NCBI GenBank assembly: GCA_963716725.1
Contig: CAVQUB010000008.1
Location: 192,001 to 256,000, forward strand
Source: an uncultured delta proteobacterium
Lineage (GTDB): Bacteria; Myxococcota_A; Polyangia; Polyangiales; Polyangiaceae
DNA length: 64,000 nt
Direction: 5' to 3'
In this document: positions 4,206 to 39,376 of the stretch, in pieces
Numbering within the stretch: the first letter of the stretch is position 1
Layout of the letters: every line of letters begins with the position of its first letter
Notes under the pieces: generated by a model
Databases searched by the model: none
What the model saw: only the letters and a program-made list of their open reading frames with translations
Told to the model about the DNA's origin: nothing
Program-made: the position numbers and the translations under genes

Positions 4206-4672
4206 ACGAGCCAAGGCTCGAAATCGAGCTACCGACCCGGCGTGCGACCACTCGGTTGGCGGCTCGCGTTGCGCCGCACCTCGAAGCGGGCGATCTCTTG
4301 GTGCTCTCCGGCGCGCTGGGTGCCGGCAAGACCTTCTTCGTGCGCGCTCTCTGCCGCGCGCTTGGGCTTCCGGCGAGTGTCCCGGTCACGAGCCCGACCT
4401 TCTCACTCATTGTCGAGCACGACACGCGACCTCCGCTGGCGCACGCGGACTTGTACCGCCTGTCCACCCCGAACGACGTCCAAGGCCTCGGGCTCGATCA
4501 CCAACGCGATGATGGCCGATTGGTCGTCGTGGAGTGGGGTGAGCCGTTCATCGCGCTTCTCGGCGGGGACGCCCTGATACTGGCGCTGGCCCTCGATCCG
4601 CGGCGCGCGAGTTTCAGCGCCACCGGCTCGCGCTCGCGGCGAATTCTGGCGGACTTGGCCCAAAGCGGTTAG
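4202..4672 (+). CDS. tsaE: tRNA threonylcarbamoyladenosine biosynthesis ATPase TsaE
   Basis: LSGALGAGKTFF, VTSPTFSL, HADLYRL, VVEWG; ATG overlaps the upstream stop. Confidence 0.93.
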   Translation: MNEPRLEIELPTRRATTRLAARVAPHLEAGDLLVLSGALGAGKTFFVRALCRALGLPASVPVTSPTFSLIVEHDTRPPLAHADLYRLSTPNDVQGLGLDHQRDDGRLVVVEWGEPFIALLGGDALILALALDPRRASFSATGSRSRRILADLAQSG

Positions 4673-4687
4673 GTGTCACGGCTGGGT

Positions 4688-5497
4688 ATGGCCGTGACGG
4701 CAGCGCAACAGACCGGGACGGGGCCGAGCGTGATCGGGGATCTGATCCGAACCCCGGTCGCCACGCTGGAGAAGGTTGGGCAGTTCGTGTTGCTCACGAC
4801 CCGCACGGTCAGCTGGATGATCCGGCCGCCCTACCGTCTCGGACAGCTGCTCTCGGCCATGGATTTCGTCGGGGTGCAGTCGGTGTTCATCGTCTCGCTC
4901 ACCGGCATCTTCAGCGGCATGGTGCTGACTCTTCAGACCGTGAACAGCCTGCGGCAGTTCAGCGCCGAAGGCAGCGTCGGCGCCATCGTCGCGATCTCAC
5001 TCTGCCGGGAGATCGCCCCGGTGTTCAGCGCGCTGATGGTGACCGCCCGCGCCGGAAGCGCGATGGCCGCCGAGCTTGGCAACATGCGGGTGACGGAGCA
5101 GATCGACGCGCTCGTCACCATGGGCGTGAGCCCCGTGCAGTACTTGCTCTCGCCGCGCATGCTCGCAGCCGTGTTGATGGGACCGCTTCTGTGCGTGCTC
5201 TACGGTTCTGTCGGCATGGTCGGCGCTTGGATCGTCGCCGTGAAGTGGCTCAGCGTCGATCCCGGCGTGTTCGTCGCCAACATCGAGCGCTACTTGGAGC
5301 TCAAGGATCTCTGGATGGGCGTGTTCAAGTCCGCGATCTTCGGCTTCTTGATCTCGGCCATCTCGTGCAACCAGGGCTTCTACGCCAAGGGAGGCGCCCG
5401 CGGCGTGGGCATCGCCACCACCAAAGCCGTCGTGCAAAGCGCAGTGGCGCTCTTGATCGCGAACTACTTCATCACCGATTGGCTCACTGCGTTGTGA
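4688..5497 (+). CDS. mlaE: ABC transporter permease MlaE family
   Basis: REIAPVFSALMVTARAGSAMAAELGNMRVTEQIDAL...PR; GVGIATTKAVV. Confidence 0.92.
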   Translation: MAVTAAQQTGTGPSVIGDLIRTPVATLEKVGQFVLLTTRTVSWMIRPPYRLGQLLSAMDFVGVQSVFIVSLTGIFSGMVLTLQTVNSLRQFSAEGSVGAIVAISLCREIAPVFSALMVTARAGSAMAAELGNMRVTEQIDALVTMGVSPVQYLLSPRMLAAVLMGPLLCVLYGSVGMVGAWIVAVKWLSVDPGVFVANIERYLELKDLWMGVFKSAIFGFLISAISCNQGFYAKGGARGVGIATTKAVVQSAVALLIANYFITDWLTAL

Positions 5498-5963: not shown

Positions 5964-8182
5964 TCAGCGGCGCCACAGCTCTTCGAGCAAGCCGGGGTTT
6001 TCGCGGCTCGCGTCGACGGGCACCAGCTTTGCGTGCTCCAGGCCGCCACCGGTGCGGAGGCGCAGCAGGTCCCACGCGTCTTTCGCGCCCATGAACTGCC
6101 CGCCGCTGTCGTGCACGATGCCCGCCTTGCGATCGAAGCGCGCGCGCAGCGTGAGCGCGCGGCCGTCCCGGATCGCGTGCAGGCGCGCTTGATGACCCGC
6201 ACCGAGCAGCACCTCGCCCCCTGGGTGCCACTCCAAGCTCCAAATGCGCGCCTCGTGTCCGGCCAGGGTGCGGTCGAGCTTCCGGCGAATGACATCGACG
6301 ACGCGGATCTGACTGTCGTCGCTGGCGATGGCGAGGAGCCTGCCGTTGGGGCTCCATTTGATCTGACGGATCGGGTGCCCCACTTGCAGCACCTCGGACG
6401 CATGGCCATTGCGCCACACGCTCACGCCGCGTTCCATGTTTGGAAACGCAATCGCGCCGCCGTCGGGCGAGAGCACCGGAGCGGCGTGCAAGGTCCGTCC
6501 TTCGATCTTGTCGAGCAGTCGCCCCGAGTCGACGTCCCAGCGCGCGATGAACTTGCTGGAGGCGGTGATCAGCGTCGTGCCATCCGCCGAGAATGACAGC
6601 GCTTCGACCCGGGCCCAGGCTGCGACCGGCTTCAGGTCGAGGTGGCGCAGCGGTTTCCAGGTGACAGCGTCGATCAAGGCGACGCCCTCGGCTCCTCCCA
6701 CCGCGACCACGGATTTGCTCCAGGCGACGCCACCAACCATCCGGATGCCGACCGAGATGGTCTTCACCACCTTGCGTTTGCCGCGGTCCCAGACACTCAG
6801 ACGCTTGGCGTCGAACACGGCGACTTGCCGCGCGTCCGGCGAGAACGCGAAGCGCGCTCCCCAATCGTCCCGGGTCGGGACGCTGATGGTGCCCGCCTCG
6901 GCGCCGCGAGCGATGTCCCAGACCGACACCGTTCCGTTGCCGACCGCGGCAGCGACGAGGGCGCCATCCGGTGACCAGGCGGGCGGACCCACCGCCGAGG
7001 TCTTGGCGCGGAATCGCTGGAGGATCTCCCCGATCGAGCGCTCCACACGTCGACCCATCCGGTAGCCGCTGTCGCGATGTGCTCGCCCGTCGGGTCGAAG
7101 CTCGCCGCCGTGACGCTGCCCCAAGGGGATCCCAGGCCGCGCACCGGTGCGCCGGAGCTCGCGCTCCACAGGCGCACCTGCGCGTCGTCGTTGCCCGTGG
7201 CGACGAGCGAAGCGTCGGGACTCACCGCCATCGATTCGAGGATGCCGACCGGGAACTTGGTGAGCGTCTTTCCCGTCTCGCTGTCGAGCACCAACACGTT
7301 GGTCCCCGATCCGGTGAACAGCCGGCGGCCGTCGCGGCTGAAGGCTGGGCGCCCCACGCGCTCGGCGGTCTTGAGCGTGCGCGACACCTCGCCCGTCGTC
7401 GGGTCGACGAGCTTCACTCCGCCGTCGCTCGAAACCGCGAGCCGTCCGTCGGGCGCGAAGCTCACGCCCCGCACGCGCTCCGTGATTCGAAAACGTACCG
7501 AGAGCTTCTTGGCGTCCCAGATGTGGGTGATGCCAGCGAGGCTCGTGGTGACGATGGTGTTGTCGTCTTGCGAGAGCGTGATCCCGACCAGCTGTCGCCC
7601 TTCGCTGCCCGGGGGCTCCGCCACGCCGAGCAGTCGTCCCGTGTTCGGGTCGTAGACCGACAGCTCGGTCTTCGGGCCCACCGTGAAGACTCGCTTGCCG
7701 TCGGCCGTGACGGCGAGGTCGAAGGCTGGCTGCTCGATCACGCGCTTGGCCACGAAGCGGGCGAGATCCCAGACGATGACCTGCGAATCCCGCCCGACCG
7801 AGACCAAGGTGGTTCCGTCGGCGCTCCACGCCACGCGCTTCACCGCCTCGTGATGCCCGGTGAGCTGCGCGAGCAATCCTCCTTCGAGGTTCCAGATGCC
7901 GACGGTGTGGTCGAACCCGCCAGTCGCGAGGAAGCGACCCGTTGGGTGAAACGCCACGGACCAGACCTGGGACGAGTGCCCGGTTTGCGGGACCAGGACC
8001 GGCTCCGGAGCGGCCGCGGGCGGTGGAGCGGATTCGGGTTCGGACGGGCTCGGCGTCGCGCGCGCGGTGACCGACCTGCGCGGCAAGTCCGGTGGCAAGC
8101 CCTCCATGCACGCCGTAGCGAGCACCAAGCTCACGGCCGTGGGCCACCTTCGCACGGTCCTCCTACGACGGCCGACAGCCAT
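5964..8182 (-). CDS. WD40-repeat lipoprotein (frameshift near 7030)
   Basis: Many GH..V..VAF.P.G..LATG..D..V..W repeats split over ORFs 6797..8617 and 5964..8147; adding one G to the G4 run gives VWSARSGEILQRF. Lipobox LATAC. Confidence 0.85.
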
Positions 8183-13644: not shown

Positions 13645-15615
13645 GTGCCGGACCTGGACGCCAGCGTCGATTCAGAGCCTCGCCCCGAGTCCGGGCGCAG
13701 CCCGGCCGTGGTGGTCGGGGAGCCCGAGCCGCCGTGGCGATCCAAGCGCCGGAGATTGCGGCGCGCGCGCAAGGCCTTCGGCCTGTTTCTGCTCTTGGCC
13801 CCCGTGGTGGCCGTGGTGGCCATCGACGCTTCACGCAGAGCAGAGCTGCTGGGCACCTTTCAGGGTTACTACCGCTGGACCTACTTCGGCGCGGTGGTGG
13901 AGAGCCTCGTCTTGTGGGGCACCCTGCTCTACGCGGCCGCGCGGCGCAGCGGCTGGGCGCGATGGCTCGCCGCCGCGCTCTTCGTCGTGGGGATCACCTT
14001 CTCGTTCGGGGGTCAGGCCTACTTCTACTCCCAGTACCACGCCTACCTGAACGTCGACGTCTCGGTGTTCGCGTCCAACTTCATGGACAGCGTGATGAAC
14101 CAGCTCTTTGCCGACATCGGGAATTATCTGAAGGCGAAGGCTCCGCCACTCATCGCTGCCATCGTGATGTTGGTGCTCGCCCGTCGCGTGATCCGGCCCC
14201 GGCGCATCCCGGGCATCGTGGCCTGCTACGTCGCGCCCGTCCTCGTGATCGCGTCGTTCTTCATCCCGACCCAGCACCGCCACATTCAGGCAGCCACCCC
14301 CGATGTGCTTTACCTGAACGCCGTGGGTGGCTTGATCCGCACTCAACTCGGGCTCACGGACCAGTCGAACCAGCTTCGTCCCCGGGCCCGGGAGTCCCTG
14401 CCGGTCGAGACGCTCACGGGCAAGCCCCACTCGCCGCGCAACGTCGTGCTCGTGATCCTGGAGAGCGTGCGCGCGGACGCCGCCTGCATCGACCACGATC
14501 CGGAGTGCCAGCGGACTGGGGCCTCGAACCGCCTCTTGCCGAAGCGCTTTGGCCTCAACCAGATGCGCTCTCTCGACTCGTCGACGGCCATCTCACTCGC
14601 GGTGTTGTGGGCAGGGCTCTTGCCGACCGAGGACCGCGAGACGCTGCACACCTGGCCGCTGCTCTTCGACTACGCCCACGCCGCCGGGTGGGACACCGCC
14701 TACTGGACCAGCCAGAACATGATGTTCGGCAACGCTCGGCTGTGGGTGAAGAACCTGGGAGTCAGCAAGTTCATCGCCGCCACCGATCTCGACCCCACCG
14801 CCGATCTCGACATGGGCGCCCCGGAACACCTGCTCGCCGATCATGTCAACCGCGAGATCGGCGGGCTCAAAGAGCCCTTCTTCGCCGTCATTCACCTGTC
14901 GAACGTGCACTATCCCTATCACATCGACCGAGACGGGCCGCTGCCCTTCCAGCCGTGGACGACCAGCAAGGCGCCCGACGAAAACCCCTACTTCTTCAAC
15001 TACTACCAGAACTCGGTCCACCAGCAGGACCTGCACGTCGCGAAGATGCTCGAGCACCTCCGCTCGACGGAGCCCGGCAAGCGCACCGCGGTGATCTACC
15101 TGTCCGACCACGCAGAGGCGTTTCGTGAGCACGGTCAGATGGGGCACACCTTCAGCGTATTCGATGAAGAGATCCACGTGCCCGCGTGGGTGGACGCACC
15201 CGATGGCATCTTGACCGACGAGCAGGCGAAGAACCTGGCCGCCAAGAAGGACGCCTTCGTGTTTCAGGTCGACGTCGCCCCGACCGTCCTGGATCTCATG
15301 GGCCTCTGGGACGAACCGAGCATCGCCAAGTACAAGACCAAGATGCCGGGTCACAGCCTGCTTCGCCCCGAGCTCACGACCCAGGCGCTGCCGATGACGA
15401 ATTGCGCTGGCGTGTGGAGCTGTGCATTCGAGAATTGGGGCTACATGAAGCAGAACATGAAGCTCGAAGCGCGCGCCTGGGACCGAGGCTGGCACTGCTA
15501 TGACGTCGCGGCCGATCCCGAGGAGTCGAACCCTCTCCCGCTCGGCCGCTGTGGCGAGCTCGAGGGCCTGGCCATAAAGACCTTCGGACGACTGCCAGGG
15601 AAGAAGCCGGACTGA
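13645..15615 (+). CDS. Membrane-anchored sulfatase/alkaline-phosphatase-superfamily protein (LTA-synthase/phosphotransferase-like)
   Basis: About five TM helices, then NVVLVILESVRAD, HYPY, SDHAE, HVP, DVAPTVLDLMG. Confidence 0.8.
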   Translation: MPDLDASVDSEPRPESGRSPAVVVGEPEPPWRSKRRRLRRARKAFGLFLLLAPVVAVVAIDASRRAELLGTFQGYYRWTYFGAVVESLVLWGTLLYAAARRSGWARWLAAALFVVGITFSFGGQAYFYSQYHAYLNVDVSVFASNFMDSVMNQLFADIGNYLKAKAPPLIAAIVMLVLARRVIRPRRIPGIVACYVAPVLVIASFFIPTQHRHIQAATPDVLYLNAVGGLIRTQLGLTDQSNQLRPRARESLPVETLTGKPHSPRNVVLVILESVRADAACIDHDPECQRTGASNRLLPKRFGLNQMRSLDSSTAISLAVLWAGLLPTEDRETLHTWPLLFDYAHAAGWDTAYWTSQNMMFGNARLWVKNLGVSKFIAATDLDPTADLDMGAPEHLLADHVNREIGGLKEPFFAVIHLSNVHYPYHIDRDGPLPFQPWTTSKAPDENPYFFNYYQNSVHQQDLHVAKMLEHLRSTEPGKRTAVIYLSDHAEAFREHGQMGHTFSVFDEEIHVPAWVDAPDGILTDEQAKNLAAKKDAFVFQVDVAPTVLDLMGLWDEPSIAKYKTKMPGHSLLRPELTTQALPMTNCAGVWSCAFENWGYMKQNMKLEARAWDRGWHCYDVAADPEESNPLPLGRCGELEGLAIKTFGRLPGKKPD

Positions 15616-29180: not shown

Positions 29181-30178
29181 GCGATGAGCTCGGCGATCTG
29201 TACGGCGTTGAGCGCGGCGCCTTTGCGCAGGTTGTCCGCGACCACCCACAGGTTGAGCGCGCCGGGGACCGCCAGGTCGTCGCGGATGCGCCCGACATAC
29301 ACCGGATCGGTGTTCGCGGCCTGAATCGGCTGTGGCTCTTTGCCCGGCGCGTACTCACCGTCGTCGACCAGCACCACGCCGGGGGCGTTGGCGAGCAGCT
29401 CGCGGGCGCGGGCGGCGCTGAGTGGCTTCTTGAAGCGCACGTGCACGCTCTCGGCGTGACCGGTGACGACCGGGACGCGCACGCAGGTGGGAGTCACGCC
29501 GATCTCGGCGTCGCCCATGATCTTGCGGGTCTCGTGGACCAGCTTCAGCTCTTCTTCGCTGTAGCCGTCCTTGCCGCCCTTCCAGTCCGACAGCACGTTC
29601 ATGGCCATCTGTCCGGGGAACACCTGGTGCTCGGGTCGCTTGCCCGCGACCACGGCCGCCAGCTGAGCCCGGAGCTCCTCGACGGCCGCCTGGCCCTTGC
29701 CGCTGGTGGCTTGATAGGTGCTGACCACGATGTGCTCGACGTGCGCCTCGTCGTGAAGTGGCTTGAGCGCCACGACCAGCTGGATGGTGCTGCAGTTCGG
29801 GTTGGCGATGATGCCCTTCCGGCGGTGCAGGACCGCCTGAGGGTTCACCTCGGGCACGACCAGCGGGACCTCGTCGTCCATGCGCCACGCGCTCGAGTTG
29901 TCGATCACGACGGCGCCCGCTGCGGCGGCGATGGGGCCGTACTCGCGGGAGACCGACGCGCCGGCGCTGAACAGCGCGATGTTCACGCCTTCGAAGGACT
30001 CGGGTCCGAGCTCCTCGACCACCAGCTCTGCGCCGCGGAAGGGCAGCTTCTTGCCGGCCGACTTGCCCGACGCGAGCGCCACCACGCGGTCCGCCGGAAA
30101 CTCTCGCCGCTCCAAAGTTCGGAGCATCTCGCGACCGACTGCGCCCGTCGCACCGACTACTGCCACTACCATACTCAT
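29177..30178 (-). CDS. asd: Aspartate-semialdehyde dehydrogenase
   Basis: GATGAVG, DNSSAWRM, VPEVN, NPNCST, CVRVPV..GHAE, DNLRKGAALNAVQIAE. Confidence 0.96.
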   Translation of the reverse strand: MSMVVAVVGATGAVGREMLRTLERREFPADRVVALASGKSAGKKLPFRGAELVVEELGPESFEGVNIALFSAGASVSREYGPIAAAAGAVVIDNSSAWRMDDEVPLVVPEVNPQAVLHRRKGIIANPNCSTIQLVVALKPLHDEAHVEHIVVSTYQATSGKGQAAVEELRAQLAAVVAGKRPEHQVFPGQMAMNVLSDWKGGKDGYSEEELKLVHETRKIMGDAEIGVTPTCVRVPVVTGHAESVHVRFKKPLSAARARELLANAPGVVLVDDGEYAPGKEPQPIQAANTDPVYVGRIRDDLAVPGALNLWVVADNLRKGAALNAVQIAELIA

Positions 30179-30325
30179 CTTCGTTTCTCCGCGAGCGCGT
30201 GCCGTGAGGCGCCGGCCGTGGTGGTCGGTGCTGTCCGGCGGCGGGCGCCGCGCCGGAAAGGTAGCGCAGCGCGCCGCCAACCGCGAGCGCGCGAATCGCT
30301 TCCGATCTGCTACGCTCGGGCCGCG

Positions 30326-33300
30326 ATGTTCGCCCTCCGCCGCGCCCCGCTCTCAGCGTTTTTTGCGCTCTTGGCGGCGGCCTGCGCCCACTCAGGTAGC
30401 GCCGGCTCCGACGCTGCGGCGGGCAGGGGTTCTGTCGCACCGCCCCTCGGGGTCGTGACCCCGGCTCGCATCGTGGCGCTGCCAGACGCCTCGGCGTCCC
30501 TCGTCGAACACGATCCCGACGGTTCGACCCGGTTCATTTCCCGCGGCATGCGCGTGCTCGCTCAGCCGGATGGTTCCGTCGAGCGCAGTCGCCAGACCTT
30601 TCCCACTGGCAAGACCGTGAAGGCACTGCGGCTGCCCTCGAGACTCGGGGGCGGATTCCTGTTCTACGCGACCGGTGCGAGCTCGACGCACCTCTGGAAG
30701 TCGAGCAGCTGGACCGACACGCTCACACCATTCGCGAACGTGGACTTCGACGTCGAGCGCATCATCGACGGCTTCAACCGAATCTACTTGCAGGACCAGC
30801 GCTCGTTCGACGTTGTCGCGCTCGATCCGGAGAGCGGCGAGCCCTTGGACCTGGGCCCGCTTCCGCCATCGCCCGCGTACTCCAGCATGGCCTTCGCCGA
30901 TGCCTGGATGGCCGTGGTCGAGGTTCCCTTTCGCGGCGTGCTCGCCACCTTCGACGCGGGCGCCAGCTGGCGGCCCCTGGGCCTGTCACACAGCTACGGC
31001 GTTCACCTGGACCGCGGCGAGATAGCCATCAACACGGCCCAGGGGCGCTTCGTCCTCGACCCTTCGGGGCATCTGCGGCAGCGCGCGCAGAACAACGACG
31101 ACGACGCGACCTTCGTGGGTGCGGGTCGCCGCGGGCCGACCGCTGCGGGGACGGCCATCACACCCCCGGAACCGCCGCCCCCGCCCCCGGTGGGGCCCTT
31201 GGGCAAGCTGCCGCTGCGCGAGGCCATCCTGCACGGCATGCCGGACGGGCCGGGCTCGGCGGTGGTGGCGAAGGACGGCGTGCTCGCCCGCGTGCGGCTG
31301 AGCGACGGCAAGATCTTGGACCTGGACGAGCACGCGTTTCCGGCGGGCGCTCGCTGTCACGGTGTGCCACTGGGCGACGGCTTCGGCTTCGTATGCGGGC
31401 AAGAGCGCGGCGGCACGGTGGTCTACGCGTACAAGAAGCCGCTCGCCCTCGACCCCGTCATGCGTTTCGTCGAACCGCGCTTCGTCGCGCCAGCCGGCAA
31501 CGGCGCGCTGGTCGTGCGTGGACCGTGCAAAGGCAGGCAGGCGGAGGCCATCGGCGCCTACTGCATTCGCGCGCGCGACGGTCGGCAATCCGAGATGCGA
31601 GTGCGCGGTGATCTCGGGGTCGAGCGCCTGGTCGCGCTCTCGGACGGCGGGACCGCGGTGCTGGTTCCGCCACGGCTGGGCGCACCCGGAACGCTGACGA
31701 TCATCGCCGCCGACGGCGGCGCGAGGACCGTCAAGCTCAAGTTGCCCAAAGACGACGCGCAGACGGCGGCCCTGCTGAAGAAGGGGCTGTGGCTCGAGGG
31801 CTTCATCGAGCGAGATGCCGCCGGAGCGGACGACGTCCCCGAGAAGAAGGCCACGAAGAAGGGCGCGCCCGCGCCCAAGCGCGCTCCGAAATCCACCAAG
31901 CCCACCTGGAAGAAGCAGCTGGCCGGGTGGGTCGTGGCGGCGGGGCCCTTCGTCGGTGTGCGCCTCGATCTCGACGGCACCGTTCATGTCGGTCGCATCG
32001 AGAGCGACATCGATCGTGCGATGGTGTCGACGGATTTGGCGCTCGTGCTGCCGAGTCGAGGCGGCAGCGCGAGCGAGAGCATCGACGGCGGATTCACCTG
32101 GCGCGAGGTCGAGTTGCCCGCCGACGGCGCGGCCACCGTGGCGCGAGCGCGGACCGAACAGAGCGCGGAGCGCGGGTGTTCCCGCGTGGGCTGCGTCTCG
32201 GGCGCCTGGATGCGTGTGGGCTGGCGGGGCCGTACCGAGAGCAGCGACATCGAGGTGGTCGACGCGCCGAAGCACTCGCGCCTGCCGGCGACCCGCGGCG
32301 GGCGATGGAACCTCTCCTGCGCGGCCACCGGAGCGACGGCGGGTGCCCGAACGAAGGAGCCGAAGCCGCAAGAGCCCGACGAAGAGGTCGGCATGATCGG
32401 CACGCCCGGCAGGTTTGGACACCGTTGGGGTGCCGCCCCGCCGACGGCTTCGGTCGAACTCAAGAGCAGCGACTGGCAGCCCTTCAAGGGCGTCGCGGCG
32501 CCCGCCAAGAAACCCACGGAGCTTGGCTTCGACATGGGCACCGAGCACATGGGCGCTCAGGTACGGGCCTACGCCTGGGGAGCGCGCGGAGCCAGCTGGG
32601 ATCGCGTGGGCCATTTCGTCTTGCGCGCGCACGATCCCTTCACGCTGGAGCGAGGCGTGTGGTCCACGGCCACCGTTCGCGGGCCCTGGAGCGACGACAC
32701 GGCGGCCTCCCAGGTCTTCGGCCGCGACTACAACCAACCGAGTGCGTGGTTTCCCGTCATGGAGCCCTCGGGGCGCGCGGCTGCGATGCTGATCAACGCT
32801 CGGGGTACGACGGATCTGCTGCTGCTCGAGGAGGGCCGCGGCGTCGTCACGGTGCAAGATTCAGCGCGCTGGGGCCTGTATCAGCTGTCCGGCGCGGTAA
32901 AGGTCGGCAGTACCTGGTACCTCGGCTCGTACGTCGCGGGCAGCAACTTCCGCCTGTTCAAGGTCAACGCTGGTCGGGTCGAGCTGCTCCGCGACTACCC
33001 AATGACCGGCGGCTGGCGGCCCAACACCACGCTGGCCGTGAACTTGGTCCGCAACTCGCGCAGCGACGCCCTGGGCATTTGGGTCGAAGCAAAGCGCACG
33101 CGCGGCACCGGCACCGCTTGGTACGTCTACTCGCTCGATCCGGAGACCGGCGATCCGCTCGACATGCTCTCGATCGATCCGCAGGAGCTCTCGCGGCTGC
33201 CGGCGGCTTGCGTTCAAGGTGCCGACGGTTGGGTGTTGGTCGGTGAGCCACCCGTCGATCCCTACGTCGACTTCCTTCAGCATGCAGACGGCATCCGATC

Positions 33301-33499
33301 ACAAGCGGTGCGAGCGAAGATGATCGCGCGACCGCAAGGGCTCTGCGTAGAAGTACTGAGCGCTGAGGCCCAAGCCGATGTACCGGCGCGCATGCCTCGC
33401 GCCGACGGCGCCCTCGCGAGCGGTTCGGAGCCGATCCCGATGGTGCTCGAAGAGCGCGGTCGACTCGGTCGGCGTTGGGGTTTTCGCTGCGTGCGTTAG
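30326..33499 (+). CDS. Large (about 1057 aa) lipoprotein, probable multi-beta-propeller
   Basis: LAAAC lipobox at the probable start; Asp-box-like TFDAGASW and SIDGGFTW. The ORF-track N-terminus is an antisense shadow of asd. Confidence 0.7.
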   Translation: MFALRRAPLSAFFALLAAACAHSGSAGSDAAAGRGSVAPPLGVVTPARIVALPDASASLVEHDPDGSTRFISRGMRVLAQPDGSVERSRQTFPTGKTVKALRLPSRLGGGFLFYATGASSTHLWKSSSWTDTLTPFANVDFDVERIIDGFNRIYLQDQRSFDVVALDPESGEPLDLGPLPPSPAYSSMAFADAWMAVVEVPFRGVLATFDAGASWRPLGLSHSYGVHLDRGEIAINTAQGRFVLDPSGHLRQRAQNNDDDATFVGAGRRGPTAAGTAITPPEPPPPPPVGPLGKLPLREAILHGMPDGPGSAVVAKDGVLARVRLSDGKILDLDEHAFPAGARCHGVPLGDGFGFVCGQERGGTVVYAYKKPLALDPVMRFVEPRFVAPAGNGALVVRGPCKGRQAEAIGAYCIRARDGRQSEMRVRGDLGVERLVALSDGGTAVLVPPRLGAPGTLTIIAADGGARTVKLKLPKDDAQTAALLKKGLWLEGFIERDAAGADDVPEKKATKKGAPAPKRAPKSTKPTWKKQLAGWVVAAGPFVGVRLDLDGTVHVGRIESDIDRAMVSTDLALVLPSRGGSASESIDGGFTWREVELPADGAATVARARTEQSAERGCSRVGCVSGAWMRVGWRGRTESSDIEVVDAPKHSRLPATRGGRWNLSCAATGATAGARTKEPKPQEPDEEVGMIGTPGRFGHRWGAAPPTASVELKSSDWQPFKGVAAPAKKPTELGFDMGTEHMGAQVRAYAWGARGASWDRVGHFVLRAHDPFTLERGVWSTATVRGPWSDDTAASQVFGRDYNQPSAWFPVMEPSGRAAAMLINARGTTDLLLLEEGRGVVTVQDSARWGLYQLSGAVKVGSTWYLGSYVAGSNFRLFKVNAGRVELLRDYPMTGGWRPNTTLAVNLVRNSRSDALGIWVEAKRTRGTGTAWYVYSLDPETGDPLDMLSIDPQELSRLPAACVQGADGWVLVGEPPVDPYVDFLQHADGIRSQAVRAKMIARPQGLCVEVLSAEAQADVPARMPRADGALASGSEPIPMVLEERGRLGRRWGFRCVR

Positions 33500-33544: not shown

Positions 33545-33562
33545 CACTCGCGAAAGCGAGTG
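33545..33562. other. Perfect stem-loop with GAAA tetraloop
   Basis: CACTCGC-GAAA-GCGAGTG, 46 nt downstream of the upstream stop. Confidence 0.4.
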
Positions 33563-33766
33563 ACCCACGACATTGATGAGCGCTTCCCAGCATTTGCAAT
33601 TTCTGTCGCAGACTGCTACCTGAATGTTCGTCCGCGTGGAGCGAGGCTGTCCCCCCCCCGGCCCCTTCACGCGGACTCTTTATCGAGAGGGGTGGAGGGG
33701 TGTGAAGCGGGCTCCGAACGGACAAGCGGCCCGAGGACCGCTAACCTCCTCATCTTGGAGGTAGCT

Positions 33767-36638
33767 TTGGCTCGTTCGTTCGTTCGCTTCTTGGTTCCGG
33801 CTGTCGCGCTCTCGGGGGCCGTGCTCGCGGCTAGCTGCACGGATGGTGAGGAAGGCACGACCGGCACGACGAAGCCGACCGTTCCGAAGCCGGCACCGGG
33901 TGAGATTCTGCGAGTGGCCTCCCACTCCGGAGTACGTCGCGCTTCAGGTGCAGCCTTCGTTCACTGTGCTCGCGCCGGGGCAGACGCGCGAGTTAGACCT
34001 GATCGTCGAGCCCGACGTGTGTGTGCCGACCAAGCTCACCTTCGAGAGCAGCGACCCCAGTGTGGTCGCGGCTCCTTCCCCGCAGCTGCTTTATTTCTCC
34101 AAGGCCAAAGCCCGGGTCCAGGTCATTGGCGGGGGCGTTGGGCAGGCCACGCTCACGGCGCACTTCCCGCGCGGAGACGGCACTGATGTCACCCTCGAGA
34201 TCCCCGTCGAGGTGATGACCACGGACATTCCCACGTGCAGCGGGAGTGGCGCCGGCAAGCTCGACGACGGCAAGACAGTGAAGGGCAGCGGCGGCCTCGC
34301 GGGAGCGAGCATCGGGCTCCAGGTCGGTGCGACTCAGCCCAACTCGGGCAGCACCCTCTGGTCGGACATCAAACCTTTCGACGTCACCATCGCTTGCGCC
34401 AAGGACCAACTCCCAGCCGGTTACACCGCGCTCGGCCCCGCCGTCAGTTTCGGCCCCGTCGGCACGCGGCTGCAGCGCGAGATCCCCTTCAGCGTCCCGA
34501 TGAACCCCGCGGTGATGCCCGACGCGGCGACGCTGCGGCACGTCACCGTCAGCTACACCGGTCCGCGCGCCAAGAAGCCTCGAGCCATCCCCATCGCGAA
34601 TCCGCGCATCGTGCGCACCGGCGCCGGCTACAGCCTCGAGTTCCTCGCGCCTTGGCTCGGCACCTATCAGGCGGTCGTGCAGACCGCGGGCGGCACCAAG
34701 AAGCGCACACGCCGGCTCACGCACCGCGCGCTGGTCGGGATCTCCATGGGCGGCGGCGGCACCGCGATGTTCGGCATGCGCAACCATGACCGCTTCGACG
34801 TGCTCGCGCCCCTCGGGGGTCCCGTCGACTGGACCTGGATGCTGGGTCACATCTATCGAAACCACCTCGGGGGCTGGTTGCCGAACGACGGGACGACGCC
34901 GCCGACGGAGCTCGCGCCGATGCCGACGGCGACGCTGCCCTACGAGCACCCGAGCACCTTCAACCAGTGGTGGTACGAGTACCCGAAGAACGGCAACGGC
35001 GGCAGCTTCCCCCGCGCCGAGTACGTGCAGATCTTCCGGGACCTCGCCCTGATGTTCGGAAATCCGAACAGCTACAATCCGGCCAAGGGCGCGGAGAACC
35101 TGCCCGCCGGCATCCCGCCGGACGACAAGTCGGTCGTGGGCGATCACCCCGGACGACAGTGCGCGGTCACGGTCGATCCGCTCGACGGCCCCGACAAAGA
35201 GAAGCAGGAAGAGCTCGACAAGAACTGCCCCATCGAACGATGCAGTCACGTCAAGACGCTGTCCGGCTACTACGACGACGAGTTCAACCCGAAGGGCACC
35301 TTTCCCGTCATCACGGTCTGCGACGGCTCCGCGCAAGACTCGGCACTCTCGCCCTACGCCAACACCTGGAAGCCCGAGAACAACAACAAGCCCCTCGAGC
35401 TGGCCCTGGCCGTCGACTACAACGGCAACGGTGTTCGCGACCTGAACGAGCCGCTCTTGCGCCAAGGCCACGAGGTCTACGACGACGTCGGCGAAGACGG
35501 CCTGCCGAGCACCAAAGAGCCCGGCTACGAAGCCGGCGTGAACGAAGATCCCGCCGGGGACGACTGGGAGCCGCAGTACAATCCGGCCGGCCTCGAGGGA
35601 AACTACCGCTGGGACACCGGCGAGCCCTTCAAGGACGACGGTCTGGACGGGGTGCCCAACACCAAGAGCAGCCCCTACGACTTTGGCGAGGGCAACGGCA
35701 AGTTCGACTACGCGCCCGGTTATCGCACCTTTCTCGAGCGCGACTCGCGCACCGTCATCGAGCAGCACGCCCTCGGCACCCACGCCAAGCCTCTCGACGA
35801 CGCTGCCCTCGCGCGCCTCGACTTGTGGACCGACGGCGGCACCCGCGACTTGTTCAACTTCGCGGTGGATGCTGCGGCGTTGACCGGCGCGTGGTCAGCT
35901 CGCGACCGCATCTCGCACTACTACATCGAGTCGCATCGCATCCCAGGACAGAACCCGAACGACCCCAAGGTCTTCTTCGGCAACCGCTTCGACTGGAGCT
36001 CCATCCCAGGCGGCGTGTTCTTGCGCTACGGCAAGATCGATCCTGCGCAGAAGGACATCGAAAACGGTTCGGGTCAGCACGTCGGGACCGTCGACGAGAT
36101 CGCGCGCCGCTTGCAGTCGGCGCTCTACTACATCGGTAGCCGCTGGCCCGACGCGCCGCGCAGTCACGACGAGGAGAGCCTGGTGGATCCCGCCGATGGA
36201 GCAGAGACCTGCGAGGTGGTCGGCGCATGTGACTGGGAGTTCACCGACTCCCGGGGCCGAAAGGGGCCGGTCAGCGTGAACCTGCCGCCGGGCTACGCGC
36301 ACAAAGATCTTCAGAACAAGCGCTACCCGGTCATCTTCTTGCTGCACGGCTACGGTCAGACGCCCGAAGACCTGAAGGCGGCGATCATCTTCCTCAAGAA
36401 CTGGATGAACTTCCCCACCGACTCCCACGCCACGCGCCTGCCCAAGGCCATCATGGTCTACGTGGATGGTCGCTGCCGGCCCGGTAAAGACGAGGCGGAG
36501 TGCATCCGCGGCACCTTCTACACCGACAGCGTGCGCGAGCACGGCCCCAAGACCGAGAGCTGGTTCCTCGAGCTGATGGACGCGGTCGACAAGAAGTACC
36601 GCACGCAGGGCCCGAGCGAGATCGATTGGGTGGAGTGA
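33767..36638 (+). CDS. Lipoprotein with circularly permuted esterase (alpha/beta-hydrolase) domain (frameshift near 33907)
   Basis: GGAGG RBS and TTG; LAASC lipobox; RALVGISMGGGG mid-protein; LPPGY...YPVIFLLHG...VDKKYRT at the extreme C-terminus. Confidence 0.8.
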
Positions 36639-36892
36639 TGTTGGTCCAGTGCCCAGACTGCCAGCGCCACGTGCGAGTCTCCGAGACGGAGTGCCCGTTC
36701 TGTGCGAATCCCAGCGGCGGCACCGGTCGACGACGTGCGCTCAAGGTGGTGCTCGCCGGCGCTGCCGGCGTCGCCGCCATGACCATCGGCATCGGCTGCG
36801 CCTACGGAATGCCGCCCGAGGATCCGGCCGATGCGGACGTGGACGCTGACGCCGGGATCGAGGACGCGCCCGACGACGCTCCAGGTCAATGA
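36638..36892 (+). CDS. 84-aa Zn-ribbon/TM peptide with AYG motif; putative splicease substrate
   Basis: ATG overlaps the upstream TGA. Order: CPDC..H...CPFC, RRR, hydrophobic helix, IGIGC-AYGMPP, acidic tail. Confidence 0.75.
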   Translation: MLVQCPDCQRHVRVSETECPFCANPSGGTGRRRALKVVLAGAAGVAAMTIGIGCAYGMPPEDPADADVDADAGIEDAPDDAPGQ

Positions 36893-38046
36893 GACGCGCC
36901 GCTGTCGGCGAAGCGCCGCGCCCCATCTACGTGGTGTGGGAGATCACCCTCGCCTGTGATCTCGCCTGCGGCCACTGCGGCTCGCGTGCGGGCAAGGCAA
37001 GGTCCGACGAGCTGTCCACCGCCGAGGCCCTCGACGTGGTGCGGCAGCTCGCCGAGCTCGGCACCGAGGAGATCACGCTGATCGGCGGCGAGGCTTATTT
37101 GCGGAAGGACTGGGCGACACTGGCCCGCGCCATCGTGGACGCCGGCATGCGCTGCGGCATGACCACCGCGGGTCGGGGCTTTGGCGCGCATCACGCGGCC
37201 GCCGCCCGAGACGCCGGCGTCTCGGCCATCAGCATCTCCCTCGACGGCCTGCGCGCGGCCCACGATCGGCAGCGCGTCTTCGGCAGCTTCGAGCGGGCCC
37301 TCGGCGCCATGCGCTTCATCCGCGCGGCGGGCCTCGGGCTCAACGCCAACACTCAGCTCAATCGGCTCAGCGTGCCAGATCTCGACGGCGTACTCGAGCT
37401 GCTGATCACCGAAGGCGCCCGCGGCTGGCAGCTGCAGATGACCGTGCCCATGGGGCGCGCGGTCGACAATCACGAATGGCTGCTCCAGCCCTGGGAGCTC
37501 CGCGAACTCTATCCGCGCCTCGCAGTTCTCGCCGAGCGCGGGCGAGCGGCCGGCGTCGCCTTCTGGCCCGCCAACAACATCGGATATTTCGGCCCCCACG
37601 AGAGCACGCTGCGCAACCGCGGTGCGCCCGGGGCGATGGTTTGGCACGGCTGCAACGCTGGCGTTTACGCCCTGGGCGTCGAGGCCGACGGCAGCATCAA
37701 GGGCTGCCCCTCGCTGCCGACGGATCACTACGTCGGAGGCAACGTGCGTGAGCGCTCGCTGCGCCAGATCTGGGACGACGCCTGCGAACTCCGCTTCATG
37801 CGCGACGAATCGCCGCGCGACCTCTGGGGTTTCTGCGCCAGCTGCTACTACGCAGAAGAGTGTCGCGGCGGCTGCACCTGGACCGCGCACACCTTCTTCG
37901 GCCGCGGGGGCAACAACCCCTATTGTCACCACCGCGCCCTCGAGCACGCGGCGCGCGGCTTGCGTGAGCGGCTCACGCCCGTGGCCGCCGCACCGGGGCT
38001 GCCCTTCGATCACGGTCGCTTCGAGATCGTGGTCGAGCCGGCTTGA
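36889..38046 (+). CDS. Radical SAM/SPASM peptide maturase, PlpX (splicease)-like
   Basis: VWEITLACDLACGHCGSRAG, LIGGEA, NTQLNRLS, WQLQMTVPMGRA, NNIGY, GIEADG-like GVEADGSIKGCPSLP, CRGGCTWTAH, GNNPYCHHRA, GLPFD.G. ATGA overlap with the peptide gene. Confidence 0.9.
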   Translation: MRRAAVGEAPRPIYVVWEITLACDLACGHCGSRAGKARSDELSTAEALDVVRQLAELGTEEITLIGGEAYLRKDWATLARAIVDAGMRCGMTTAGRGFGAHHAAAARDAGVSAISISLDGLRAAHDRQRVFGSFERALGAMRFIRAAGLGLNANTQLNRLSVPDLDGVLELLITEGARGWQLQMTVPMGRAVDNHEWLLQPWELRELYPRLAVLAERGRAAGVAFWPANNIGYFGPHESTLRNRGAPGAMVWHGCNAGVYALGVEADGSIKGCPSLPTDHYVGGNVRERSLRQIWDDACELRFMRDESPRDLWGFCASCYYAEECRGGCTWTAHTFFGRGGNNPYCHHRALEHAARGLRERLTPVAAAPGLPFDHGRFEIVVEPA

Positions 38047-38844
38047 TCAGAGCGCAGCGACGAGGGCCCGGATCACGGCCTCGGCGAAGACCGCGCGCGT
38101 CTCGGGCTCGTCCCACCGCCGGGCTTCGCGATCGTCCAGGGCGTTGTGAGTCTCGATGATCACCGAAGGGATCTTGGGTCTCCAGAGCACGAAGACGCGC
38201 TCCGTGGCCGCGCGACGATCCACGAACACGCCGCGCTGCACGTCGTCAGCCGCGTAGGTCGGCGCGTACTCGGCGCCGGCGTAGGCCAGGAACCCGGACT
38301 GCTCCAGCGATCGACCGAGGGCCCGCGCGATCCCGACCCGCGCACCTATCGCGCTCGGCTCACCGTGATCCGACCAGAGTACCGACAGCCCCGGCGCCGA
38401 CCGGCTCCGCGAGCAGCTGGTCCCCGGTTCGGGTTGCCAGAGCTCGGTCTTACCGCGCACGTCGGAGTGCAGGCTCAGGAATACGTCCGCGGGCCAGGCC
38501 TCGGCCTCACGGATGCGCTCTCCGTAGGGAACGAGCTGATCGTTCCGGCGCGTGAGCTTGACGTCGAAGTGGCCAGTTCGGCTGAGCGCGGTCGCCAGAT
38601 CTTCGGCCAGAGCCAGCGTGAAGCTCTGTTCATCGCGGCAGAAGGCGTTCTTGTTTCCGGTGTTGCCTGGCGCGCCGTGTCCCGGGTCGACAACGACGCG
38701 GCGGGTGCCGAAGTTCACCGGGATCGTCGCGGTCGCCGGGTGCAGCTTGGCGTCGGGCCAGACCTCGGGCTCGAGCGCGCGGCCCAACGCCCAGCTCGAC
38801 AGCGCGAGCCCCGCGACCAACCCGAGAACCGCCGCCTTCCGCAC
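38047..38844 (-). CDS. N-acetylmuramoyl-L-alanine amidase (Amidase_3)
   Basis: VVVDPGHG, E, LTR, FLSLHSD, SVIIETH zinc and catalytic motifs; signal peptide. Confidence 0.85.
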   Translation of the reverse strand: MRKAAVLGLVAGLALSSWALGRALEPEVWPDAKLHPATATIPVNFGTRRVVVDPGHGAPGNTGNKNAFCRDEQSFTLALAEDLATALSRTGHFDVKLTRRNDQLVPYGERIREAEAWPADVFLSLHSDVRGKTELWQPEPGTSCSRSRSAPGLSVLWSDHGEPSAIGARVGIARALGRSLEQSGFLAYAGAEYAPTYAADDVQRGVFVDRRAATERVFVLWRPKIPSVIIETHNALDDREARRWDEPETRAVFAEAVIRALVAAL

Positions 38845-38914: not shown

Positions 38915-39376
38915 TCACGGGCTCACGAACACCGCCATACCGACGCCGAAGATCAGGATGCCTGCCTCGAGGATCCAAAACAGCAGCCAGATCCCACCAA
39001 AGATGCCGCCCATGATCATGCCCACCAGCGCCAGGGTGGCGTTGTTGCCGGTGTCGTTCTCTTCCTTGGCCTTCTGACGTGCGCGGTTGCCGAAATAGAG
39101 CGCAGCAAAGCCCATCGGGAAACAGGTCGTCGACATGGTGGCGATGGCGAGCACGAGGGCGATGACGGCGTCGGAGTTCGTGGGCTTGGACGGGGTGCCG
39201 AAGGGTGCGCCGTAGGTCCCCGGAGGCGGTGGAACGAAACCCATCGGTCCTCCGGGCGGCGGGCCGCCGGGCGGAACACCGGGCGGAACACCTGGGGAAC
39301 CCCACGACGGACCGCCGGGCGGAACCCCCGGGGGACCTCCCGGGGGGCCCCAGGGCGGGCCAGGCGGCGGTTGCAT
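38915..39376 (-). CDS. DUF4190-like membrane protein with Pro/Gly-rich N-terminus
   Basis: PPG repeats, TN..A.IALVLAI, LALVGMIMG. Confidence 0.75.
   Translation of the reverse strand: MQPPPGPPWGPPGGPPGVPPGGPSWGSPGVPPGVPPGGPPPGGPMGFVPPPPGTYGAPFGTPSKPTNSDAVIALVLAIATMSTTCFPMGFAALYFGNRARQKAKEENDTGNNATLALVGMIMGGIFGGIWLLFWILEAGILIFGVGMAVFVSP

Follow-up and report, generated by a model that had tools for sequence, protein, structure and literature searches.

A zinc-ribbon peptide with a lipoprotein-type signal beside a splicease-related radical SAM enzyme in Myxococcota: a candidate binary splicease-type system

What would a radical S-adenosylmethionine (SAM) enzyme related to the spliceases do with a short neighbouring peptide which carries a zinc ribbon, a lipoprotein-type signal and a single tyrosine? 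This question is raised by two overlapping genes in the DNA of an uncultured delta proteobacterium of the Polyangiaceae (assembly GCA_963716725.1, contig CAVQUB010000008.1, positions 192,001 to 256,000 of the forward strand), a stretch of 64,000 nucleotides which is referred to here as the window and in which the positions of the window genes are counted. Our analysis suggests that the two genes form a binary splicease-type system for a peptide made on the ribosome and then post-translationally modified (RiPP) with an unusual precursor, in which the ribbon would serve for docking, tyramine would be excised from the peptide backbone and the product would be a lipid-anchored ketoamide. We give this reading a probability of roughly 55%. 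The features of the two genes are as follows.

36638 to 36892, + strand: precursor gene, 84 residues plus stop, with zinc ribbon, lipoprotein-type signal, AYG site and acidic tail
36650 to 36703, + strand: four-cysteine zinc ribbon, C5-x2-C8-x-R10-H11-V12-R13-x5-C19-P20-F21-C22, proposed docking or activating element
36728 to 36799, + strand: signal-peptide-like segment with R31-R33 and K36, the uncharged stretch V37-G53 and the lipobox I-G-I-G-C54
36800 to 36808, + strand: A55-Y56-G57, proposed tyramine-excision (splice) site
36809 to 36889, + strand: proline-rich acidic tail (M58 to Q84), part of the predicted mature peptide
36889 to 38046, + strand: radical SAM/SPASM enzyme, splicease relative, 385 residues

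The peptide frame runs from the ATG at 36638 to the TGA at 36890-36892, and its stop shares the letters ATGA with the start codon of the enzyme gene (36889). A program-made list of open reading frames (ORFs) begins the same frame at an upstream GTG (36500, 130 residues), but the ATG is taken as the start because the GTG lies inside the preceding 931-residue gene and all homologues start with MLV or MLI. Along the peptide, CPDC (residues 5-8) and CPFC (19-22) are followed by RRR (31-33), K36, an uncharged stretch (37-53), IGIGC, AYGMPP and the acidic tail, and Y56 is the sole tyrosine. All that the initial annotation had read from the letters of the two genes, including their motifs, their ATGA overlap and the single tyrosine, holds in our analysis.

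The enzyme contains a Radical_SAM domain (PF04055, 5.3e-18) with the CxxxCxxC motif at C23, C27 and C30 (36955-36978) and a SPASM domain (PF13186, 2e-7) whose cysteines span C255 to C346 (37651-37926); the three motif cysteines and seven cysteines of the SPASM region are invariant in 36 relatives. Its best match is TIGR04103, the PlpX-type family named "nif11-class peptide radical SAM maturase 3" (IPR026482), with 500.3 bits (3.3e-150, model positions 5-380 of 412; cutoff 725), followed by TIGR03913 with 440.1 bits (7.4e-132, model positions 18-389 of 477; cutoff 591.75), while the next NCBIfam family, TIGR04133, reaches 155.5 bits only. Since these two families are far ahead of all others and both cutoffs are missed, the sequence places the enzyme as a close relative of both equivalogs and as a member of neither. 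They are the very families named when the enzyme was initially described as PlpX-like, and that description stands in the sense that the enzyme scores below both cutoffs and belongs to a clade which is sister to the TIGR04103-like enzymes. A role in maturing the sulfatase encoded at 13645-15612 was considered and rejected, as the top two models are of the splicease type and no sulfatase-maturase model is among the 25 matches listed.

A word-indexed search returned at least 7831 related proteins at E<=0.001 among 8000 candidates scored, and the best 120 of these relatives are 59-100% identical by BLASTP and come mostly from Myxococcota and Planctomycetota, including Sandaracinus amylolyticus. 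Scanning one genome per GTDB species gave 605 relatives, the best 80 of which (52-82% identity) define the loci L001 to L080 used below; 20 of the 80 locus enzymes were scored against NCBIfam. A cyanobacterial enzyme (L057) lies above the TIGR04103 cutoff of 725 with 789 bits and is 54% identical to the window enzyme, which shares 52-58% identity with the enzymes of the TIGR04103 side in general. Four Pyrinomonadaceae enzymes (L045, L047, L065 and L071) lie above the TIGR03913 cutoff with 595-634 bits, and the ribbon-associated enzymes of Myxococcota and Planctomycetota score 487-524 bits on TIGR04103 and 405-498 bits on TIGR03913. In a tree of 81 enzymes, five TIGR04103-like rows (L019, L057, L062, L069 and L075) are split from the other 76, the window enzyme included, with a support of 99 (quick tree) and 100/99.8 (careful tree), and the TIGR03913 clade (support 100) is nested within the 76 rows. 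The quick tree makes the window enzyme sister to L001 (99) and then to L002 (98), within a clade of 15 rows (97). The nearest solved structures are SkfB (6efn) and PqqE (6c8v); no splicease structure was found in the PDB.

At least one separate gene for a zinc-ribbon/YG peptide lies beside the enzyme in 60 of the 80 loci, 55 of them recognized by a profile search of six-frame ORFs and five by pattern inspection (L031, L035, L042, L061 and L074). The peptide gene is upstream in 15 loci, as in the window, downstream in one to four tandem paralogues in 44 and divergent in one (L019); among the upstream cases, L030 is a doubtful match of 36 residues, and several of the downstream matches end at contig ends. 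The co-occurrence of CxxC..CPFC and YG peptides with homologues of the enzyme, which the initial annotation had raised for Myxococcota, is therefore a recurrent feature, and cultured carriers include Plesiocystis pacifica SIR-1 (L064), Enhygromyxa salina SWB007 (L058) and Sandaracinus amylolyticus (P0045). Many myxobacteria have the same pairing, so the peptide would probably be anchored in the membrane and carry an unusual keto-amide residue. Clustering of the plausible flank genes of the 80 loci leaves the enzyme and the peptides as the sole recurring genes, with no recurring peptidase, ABC exporter, gene resembling a RiPP recognition element (RRE) or small accessory gene in these flanks.

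Two further arrangements account for ten more loci. The ribbon is found in frame at the C-terminus of the enzyme in seven of the 80 (L045, L047, L054, L065, L067, L071 and L073), all from Acidobacteriota, and upstream of these fused enzymes lies a peptide of about 75 residues with one site of the PLYGRPI or PPYGDPI type. This peptide matches DUF1843 (PF08898) in all three loci tested, and the 'GDL motif peptide' after which NCBIfam names the TIGR03913 maturases is probably this one. The fused ribbon is accompanied by a basic helix on the C-termini of TIGR03913 enzymes in Pyrinomonadaceae/Acidobacteriota, for example at L045:6135-6410. Three of the 80 loci (L062, L069 and L075) are without a ribbon and have upstream precursors with YG-containing repeats. 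These precursor loci (L062:4389-4934, L069:4005-4823 and L075:4648-4989), from Vulcanimicrobiota, Myxococcota and Blastocatellia, belong to enzymes which score 665-697 bits on TIGR04103, just under its cutoff, and the repeats read QPVYGAPMPS (five times), QPMYGVTIP and PIYGPPPFP, the last followed by a C-terminal hydrophobic stretch.

Upstream of the enzyme in the cyanobacterial locus L057 are three precursors with the C-terminal sequences AAYGMSPF, LAYGLSPM and AMYGISPF, which appear Nif11-like. The locus serves as a positive control for the approach because its XYG precursors turned up, and their sites resemble CAYGMPPE of the window. On the same TIGR04103 side of the tree, the Sericytochromatia locus L019 (605 bits) encodes a divergent zinc-ribbon/lipobox/PVYGAP peptide (4466-4954, - strand), so that precursors of the ribbon type are not wholly restricted to the clade of 76 rows.

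Does the peptide itself look like a substrate? The word-indexed search gave 11 peptide homologues with BLASTP identities of 65-95%, and in their alignment C5, C8, R10, H11, R13, C19, P20, F21 and C22 of the ribbon as well as I50, G51, C54, A55, Y56, G57, M58 and P59 of the second half are invariant. AYG is kept in 12 of 12 close peptides, the window peptide included. A profile built from this alignment and run against 1.84 billion representatives (clustered at 50% identity) collected 493 clusters at E<=1e-3, and the best 150 of these were used for motif statistics. CxxC...CxxC is present near the N-terminus in 147 of the 150, at least one YG in 143 and YGxP in 129. YG is clearly enriched, as 202 of 281 tail tyrosines precede a glycine compared to 37 on average and at most 51 in 500 composition-preserving shuffles; the earlier proposal that YG is conserved in neighbouring peptides is thus confirmed in close and distant relatives alike. 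Over the 202 sites the consensus is [P/A]-X-Y-G-[A/G/P/L/V]-P-P, with proline at +3 in 165 and at +4 in 138, and the residue X before YG is variable (A 92, C 23, L 21, V 16, P 14, M 7). The peptide has no Pfam or NCBIfam family match, and the sources give members of its family no name beyond "hypothetical protein"; by its sequence it belongs to a large unnamed family of probable precursors. Members combine the zinc ribbon with a basic stretch, about 16 uncharged residues up to the lipobox cysteine and a tail rich in proline, glycine and aspartate which holds the xYGxPP sites.

The first YG directly follows the lipobox cysteine (CYG) in 21 of 139 cases and stands one residue later, as CAYG of the window, in 27. 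We considered this cysteine itself as part of the target of the enzyme, in the form of a Cys-Tyr link, and regard this as unlikely because most YG sites are away from it, the first YG adjoining it in just 48 of 139.

Some members are longer. P0171, P0196, P0232, P0234 and P0271 have 146-332 residues, with longer, apparently non-repetitive sequence beyond the lipobox/YG region. The single YG of P0234 lies away from its lipobox, P0271 shows an above-threshold MopE-type metal-binding motif, and P0196 has a match to the AgmX/PglI C-terminal domain below threshold and no cysteine after its ribbon. In view of folded domains after the site in longer members, the class may include lipoproteins proper, and the enzyme may act on true lipoproteins besides short peptides.

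The segment between ribbon and splice site has the anatomy of a lipoprotein signal peptide. GVAAMTIGIGC of the window matches the PS51257 lipobox core pattern (an uncharged stretch followed by [AGS]-C), as do 128 of the 147 ribbon-bearing representatives and 63 of the 80 locus peptides, and the lipobox-like cysteine of the initial description is thus a feature of the family. A cysteine lies within 70 residues after the ribbon in 144 of the 147. The residue at -1 to this cysteine is alanine in 66, glycine in 58 and serine in 9 of the 144; A, S, V or T stands at -2 in 102 and L, A, V or I at -3 in 100. Ahead of the cysteine, the uncharged run has a median length of 16 residues (interquartile range 13-17; about 17 in the window), the apolar run stops at the cysteine in 136 of 144, and this cysteine is the sole one after the ribbon in 107. 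The basic residues R31-R33 and K36 stand after the ribbon instead of near the N-terminus. An uncharged run which ends at a cysteine in this manner is suggestive of a lipoprotein signal peptide and not of a membrane-spanning helix.

The presence of a homologous ribbon on either partner points to its role. When 40 precursors were compared with the seven fused enzyme tails by hhalign, their ribbons aligned over 32 columns with a probability of 97% and an E-value of 1e-10, with LxxCxxCxRHV-x6-CPFC as the motif common to free and fused ribbons. In addition, 6 of 17 family peptides weakly match positions 426-459 of the 477-position TIGR03913 model (E 0.0013-0.1), and the TIGR03913 C-terminus is therefore a ribbon of the same kind. 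One ribbon module thus sits either on the N-terminus of the substrate or on the C-terminus of the enzyme. In known systems, the Y protein and the RhaA leader helix are described as binding the same splicease surface and activating the enzyme, and the fusion of either to the splicease C-terminus as giving leader-independent activity (Richter 2024, PMC11414181). Because the natural swap of the ribbon parallels these engineered fusions, we infer by analogy that the ribbon is a docking or activating element for the enzyme, and the swap is the best argument available for it. The ribbon as recognition element, which had been suggested at the outset in view of the absence of an adjacent PlpY/RRE gene, hereby gains independent support from the TIGR03913 enzyme C-termini. 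The absence itself is not odd, as the spliceotide pathways found beyond cyanobacteria are all described as lacking a Y protein (Richter 2024, PMC11414181).

With the gene pair, its conservation and motifs and the position of the enzyme among the families established, and with free and fused ribbons shown to be homologous, we infer the following course of chemistry, export, lipidation, leader removal and function. In the cytoplasm, the radical SAM/SPASM enzyme would dock on the ribbon, which would replace the leader helix or the Y protein of the known spliceases, and would excise the equivalent of tyramine (C8H9NO, about 135.06 Da) from Tyr56. The tyrosine carbonyl would join the carbonyl carbon of Ala55 to give an Ala-derived alpha-keto-beta-amino amide, in a reaction like that described for spliceases (PMC9811515, PMC10533398). 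The modified precursor would then be exported by Sec and diacylglycerylated at Cys54 by Lgt, and LspA would cut before Cys54; ribbon and signal peptide would together be the leader, removed by the general lipoprotein machinery without a dedicated peptidase. The mature product would be a lipid-anchored acidic peptide of residues 54-84 in which position 2 bears an electrophilic ketoamide. The spliceotides tested in PMC11626197 are reported to inhibit serine and cysteine proteases with an activity that needs the ketoamide. Because such proteases are inhibited by tested spliceotides when these are spliced only, the product is, by analogy, most likely an envelope-bound inhibitor of serine or cysteine proteases. 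The variation at residue X and the occurrence of tandem paralogues would be consistent with a range of target specificities.

Several points weigh against this reading. The enzyme falls short of both curated cutoffs, and to our knowledge no member of its subclade has been assayed. Profile and pattern screens did not find a zinc-ribbon or YG-repeat peptide in ten of the 80 loci; in four of these the flank on the relevant side is shorter than 700 bp, and in four (L014, L028, L038 and L052) the flanks are full, while the long-branch locus L076 and L057, with its Nif11-like XYG precursors, are also among the ten. A zinc ribbon is marked by two CxxC knuckles 10-12 residues apart, and the four cysteines are invariant in the close peptides, but on the Pfam zinc-ribbon and RING models the family peptides give sub-gathering matches only (E 0.0009-0.1). 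The glycine at -3 of the window lipobox is a minority form (14 of 144). The usual lipoprotein rule places the cysteine at about residues 15-35 with a lysine or arginine near the N-terminus; the window cysteine at residue 54 is outside this range, as is the family median of 53 (range 26-92), because the ribbon precedes the signal, and we are aware of no earlier case in which a folded zinc ribbon precedes a signal peptide. Modification must precede export because the radical SAM enzyme is cytoplasmic. This order is assumed, and membrane targeting of the nascent chain would compete with modification, while Lgt, LspA and Lol would have to accept a beta-amino ketoamide at +2. A precedent for the action of a radical SAM/SPASM enzyme before Sec export is the anaerobic sulfatase-maturating enzyme, which is likewise cytoplasmic with a signal-peptide-bearing substrate, although it differs in its formylglycine chemistry, in its substrate and in the absence of lipidation. 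As a separate observation, L076 (Brevundimonas) has a second radical-SAM-like ORF (…CNIECRHCG…, 6299-7378) directly after the first.

Some of these points could equally be met if the same pair carries out the splicing and the signal is retained as an uncleaved anchor. The product would then be a bitopic protein with its ribbon in the cytoplasm and its ketoamide tail outside, and not a lipoprotein. The large distance of Cys54 from the N-terminus, the folded ribbon before the hydrophobic segment, the uncommon glycine at -3 and the three of 147 ribbon-bearing representatives without a cysteine after the ribbon all fit such an anchor. Nevertheless, we regard it as unlikely, if worth keeping in mind, since the uncharged stretch is short (median 16), ends exactly at the cysteine and has alanine or glycine before it in 124 of 144, since this cysteine is so often the sole one after the ribbon (107 of 144), and since conservation of a lipobox would be pointless for a plain membrane anchor. 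A different matter is whether tyramine is excised at all. The chemistry of radical SAM/SPASM enzymes is diverse, SkfB and PqqE are the nearest relatives with a solved structure, and the missed cutoffs and the clade separate from TIGR04103-like enzymes would leave room for a cross-link, epimerisation or hydroxylation at the YG sites without formation of a ketoamide. We consider this rather improbable because the enzyme shares 52-58% identity with those of the TIGR04103 side, the substrate motif P-X-Y-G-x-P is the same, and X varies widely while YG is fixed, as expected if the tyrosine is excised and X gives the side chain.

It is also conceivable that the small protein is not a substrate but a membrane-bound zinc-ribbon accessory or regulator, for instance an anti-sigma-like one, and that the real substrate is encoded elsewhere. 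A ribbon with one hydrophobic segment does resemble small regulators, the ribbon belongs to the enzyme in the fused systems, and genes for extracytoplasmic function (ECF) sigma factors occur in five of the 80 flanks. These sigma genes are sporadic, however, and the tails display the YG enrichment together with the fixed xYGxPP motif, up to four tandem paralogues occur, as is typical of RiPP precursors, and no other YG-bearing candidate was found adjoining the window enzyme. We therefore rejected the anti-sigma or regulator reading, which seems very improbable. A binary splicease-type system with a lipid-anchored product remains our preferred reading.

How does this system compare with those described before? 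No enzymes other than the spliceases are known to us to introduce beta-amino acids after translation by removing tyramine from a ribosomal peptide backbone. The closest known systems are the type I cyanobacterial spliceotide systems PlpX/PlpY/PlpA and PcpXYA, whose enzymes belong to the same radical SAM/SPASM superfamily, with TIGR04103 as the best model for the window enzyme. Their precursors likewise have an X-Y-G site followed by x-P, with tyramine excision to an alpha-keto-beta-amino amide expected (PMC11414181, PMC10533398), and the family motif P/A-X-Y-G-x-P-P resembles the validated Plp splice tag GGPIRPGYGLPI as quoted in PMC10533398. In contrast to PlpX, the window enzyme is below the TIGR04103 cutoff and lacks about 30 C-terminal model positions, and the window system has no Y protein, no Nif11 or NHLP leader and no double-glycine cleavage site, its precursor having a zinc ribbon and a lipoprotein signal instead. 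The type II binary spliceases of Rheinheimera (RhaX/RhaA, RcsX/RcsA and RasX/RasA) are two-component systems without a Y protein as well, and an element of their precursor leader is described as binding and activating the enzyme (PMC11414181, PMC11626197), which is the role proposed here for the ribbon. However, their leader element is an alpha-helix and not a four-cysteine ribbon, and their genes are in multi-RiPP clusters whereas the window pair is among housekeeping genes.

The TIGR03913/DUF1843 systems are nested in the same clade of 76 rows and share the homologous LxxCxxCxRHV...CPFC ribbon, and their peptides have one L/P-Y-G-x-P-I site. They differ in that the ribbon is fused to the enzyme C-terminus and not to the substrate, the window enzyme (385 residues) ending before the ribbon, and in that their substrate is a soluble helical DUF1843 protein without a signal peptide, while the window peptide has no DUF1843 match. 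Operons of DUF1843 with a TIGR03913 enzyme are mentioned as uncharacterised in PMC12114271 and PMC10994174. Far more distant is the pairing of TIGR04133 with TIGR04134, a 'radical SAM-associated putative lipoprotein', which likewise joins a radical SAM/SPASM enzyme to a putative lipoprotein. The peptide family has no family match to TIGR04134, with one hit at E 0.054 in the signal region only, and we know of no YG logic for that pair.

It is possible that such loci have been recorded before. Scott et al. 2022 are described as having mined 3418 radical SAM-SPASM proteins according to how often YG occurs in the neighbouring proteins, and as having found systems in 189 genera (PMC10849128), and 939 predicted and 27 characterised splicease systems are cited in PMC10533398. 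Mining of this kind very probably caught the YG-rich neighbours described here, so the loci may be listed there as a "type" already. We found no literature linking spliceotides with lipoproteins, the survey of Scott et al. 2022 being outside the scope of this search and a prior description being possible, and nothing relevant on the accessions of the family; in the search listing of the splicing literature from 2024 onward, no title or abstract opening pointed to zinc-ribbon/lipobox precursors. Splicease-type radical SAM systems are thus known, whereas a precursor with a ribbon and a lipoprotein signal appears to be new, pending comparison with Scott et al. 2022.

More tentatively, and with somewhat less than an even chance in our estimate, these loci may represent a large unnamed class of "lipoprotein RiPPs". 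In such a class the ribbon and lipoprotein signal would be the leader, Sec, Lgt and LspA would act as exporter and leader peptidase, the lipid-anchored products would bear alpha-keto-beta-amino acids at or near the acylated cysteine and act as envelope-bound protease inhibitors, and the docking ribbon would be mobile. If so, the longer members would be lipid-anchored proteins, the varied X (Ala, Leu, Val, Met, Pro, Lys and others) would amount to a repertoire of inhibitors in Myxococcota and Planctomycetota, and the ribbon would be a module placed by evolution on substrate or enzyme. Natural end products and biological roles of spliceases were described as still unknown in a 2022 review (PMC9811515). 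A leader made of a lipoprotein signal would indicate the destination of the product, the cell envelope, and would explain leader removal without a dedicated protease; an envelope-bound ketoamide could act in self-protection or in prey-directed protease inhibition. The swap of the ribbon between enzyme and substrate would be a natural counterpart of the engineered leader-to-enzyme fusions (Richter 2024), and the ribbon may be a compact, possibly portable recognition tag for protein splicing.

In the window, the pair lies among ordinary chromosomal genes (asd, proC, dnaJ, a HAD hydrolase, an amidase, Ser/Thr kinases and TonB-ExbBD), and no second copy of it was found within the 64,000 nucleotides. 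The peptide and enzyme genes are preceded by one further gene.

33843 to 36638, + strand: upstream ORF, 931 residues, weak esterase-like C-terminus (Pfam PF00756, 1.5e-6), context only

Its stop overlaps the ATG of the peptide gene (TGATG, 36636-36640), so that the 931-residue ORF, the 84-residue ORF and the 385-residue gene abut one another on the + strand. As a component of the system the upstream gene was rejected, since tblastn finds a homologue in L001 and L002 only among the 80 loci. Its start region (33560-33930) is frameshifted near 33900 compared to the homologues in L001 and L002, where the lipoprotein signal (…AASC…) and '…KPAPGEICEWPPNPEY…' share one frame; the window has 'CEWPPTPEY…' in a different frame from the one that holds the signal and 'KPAPGEI'. 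This reflects either an assembly error or a broken gene, and the intact protein would be a lipoprotein of about 990 residues with the same weak esterase-like C-terminus. Further upstream, the likely true start of the long ORF at 29441-33499 (+ strand) is an internal lipoprotein-like signal (MFALRRAPLSAFFALLAAAC…). This ORF has no Pfam family at E<=1e-5, and its C-terminal portion of about 520 residues is conserved upstream in L001 and L002 with 66-80% identity. On the other side of the pair, an N-acetylmuramoyl-L-alanine amidase of the Amidase_3 type (38047-38844, - strand) adjoins a DUF4190 protein (38915-39376, - strand; PF13828, 5.2e-10) which has a Pro/Gly-rich N-terminal repeat (PPGGPP…).

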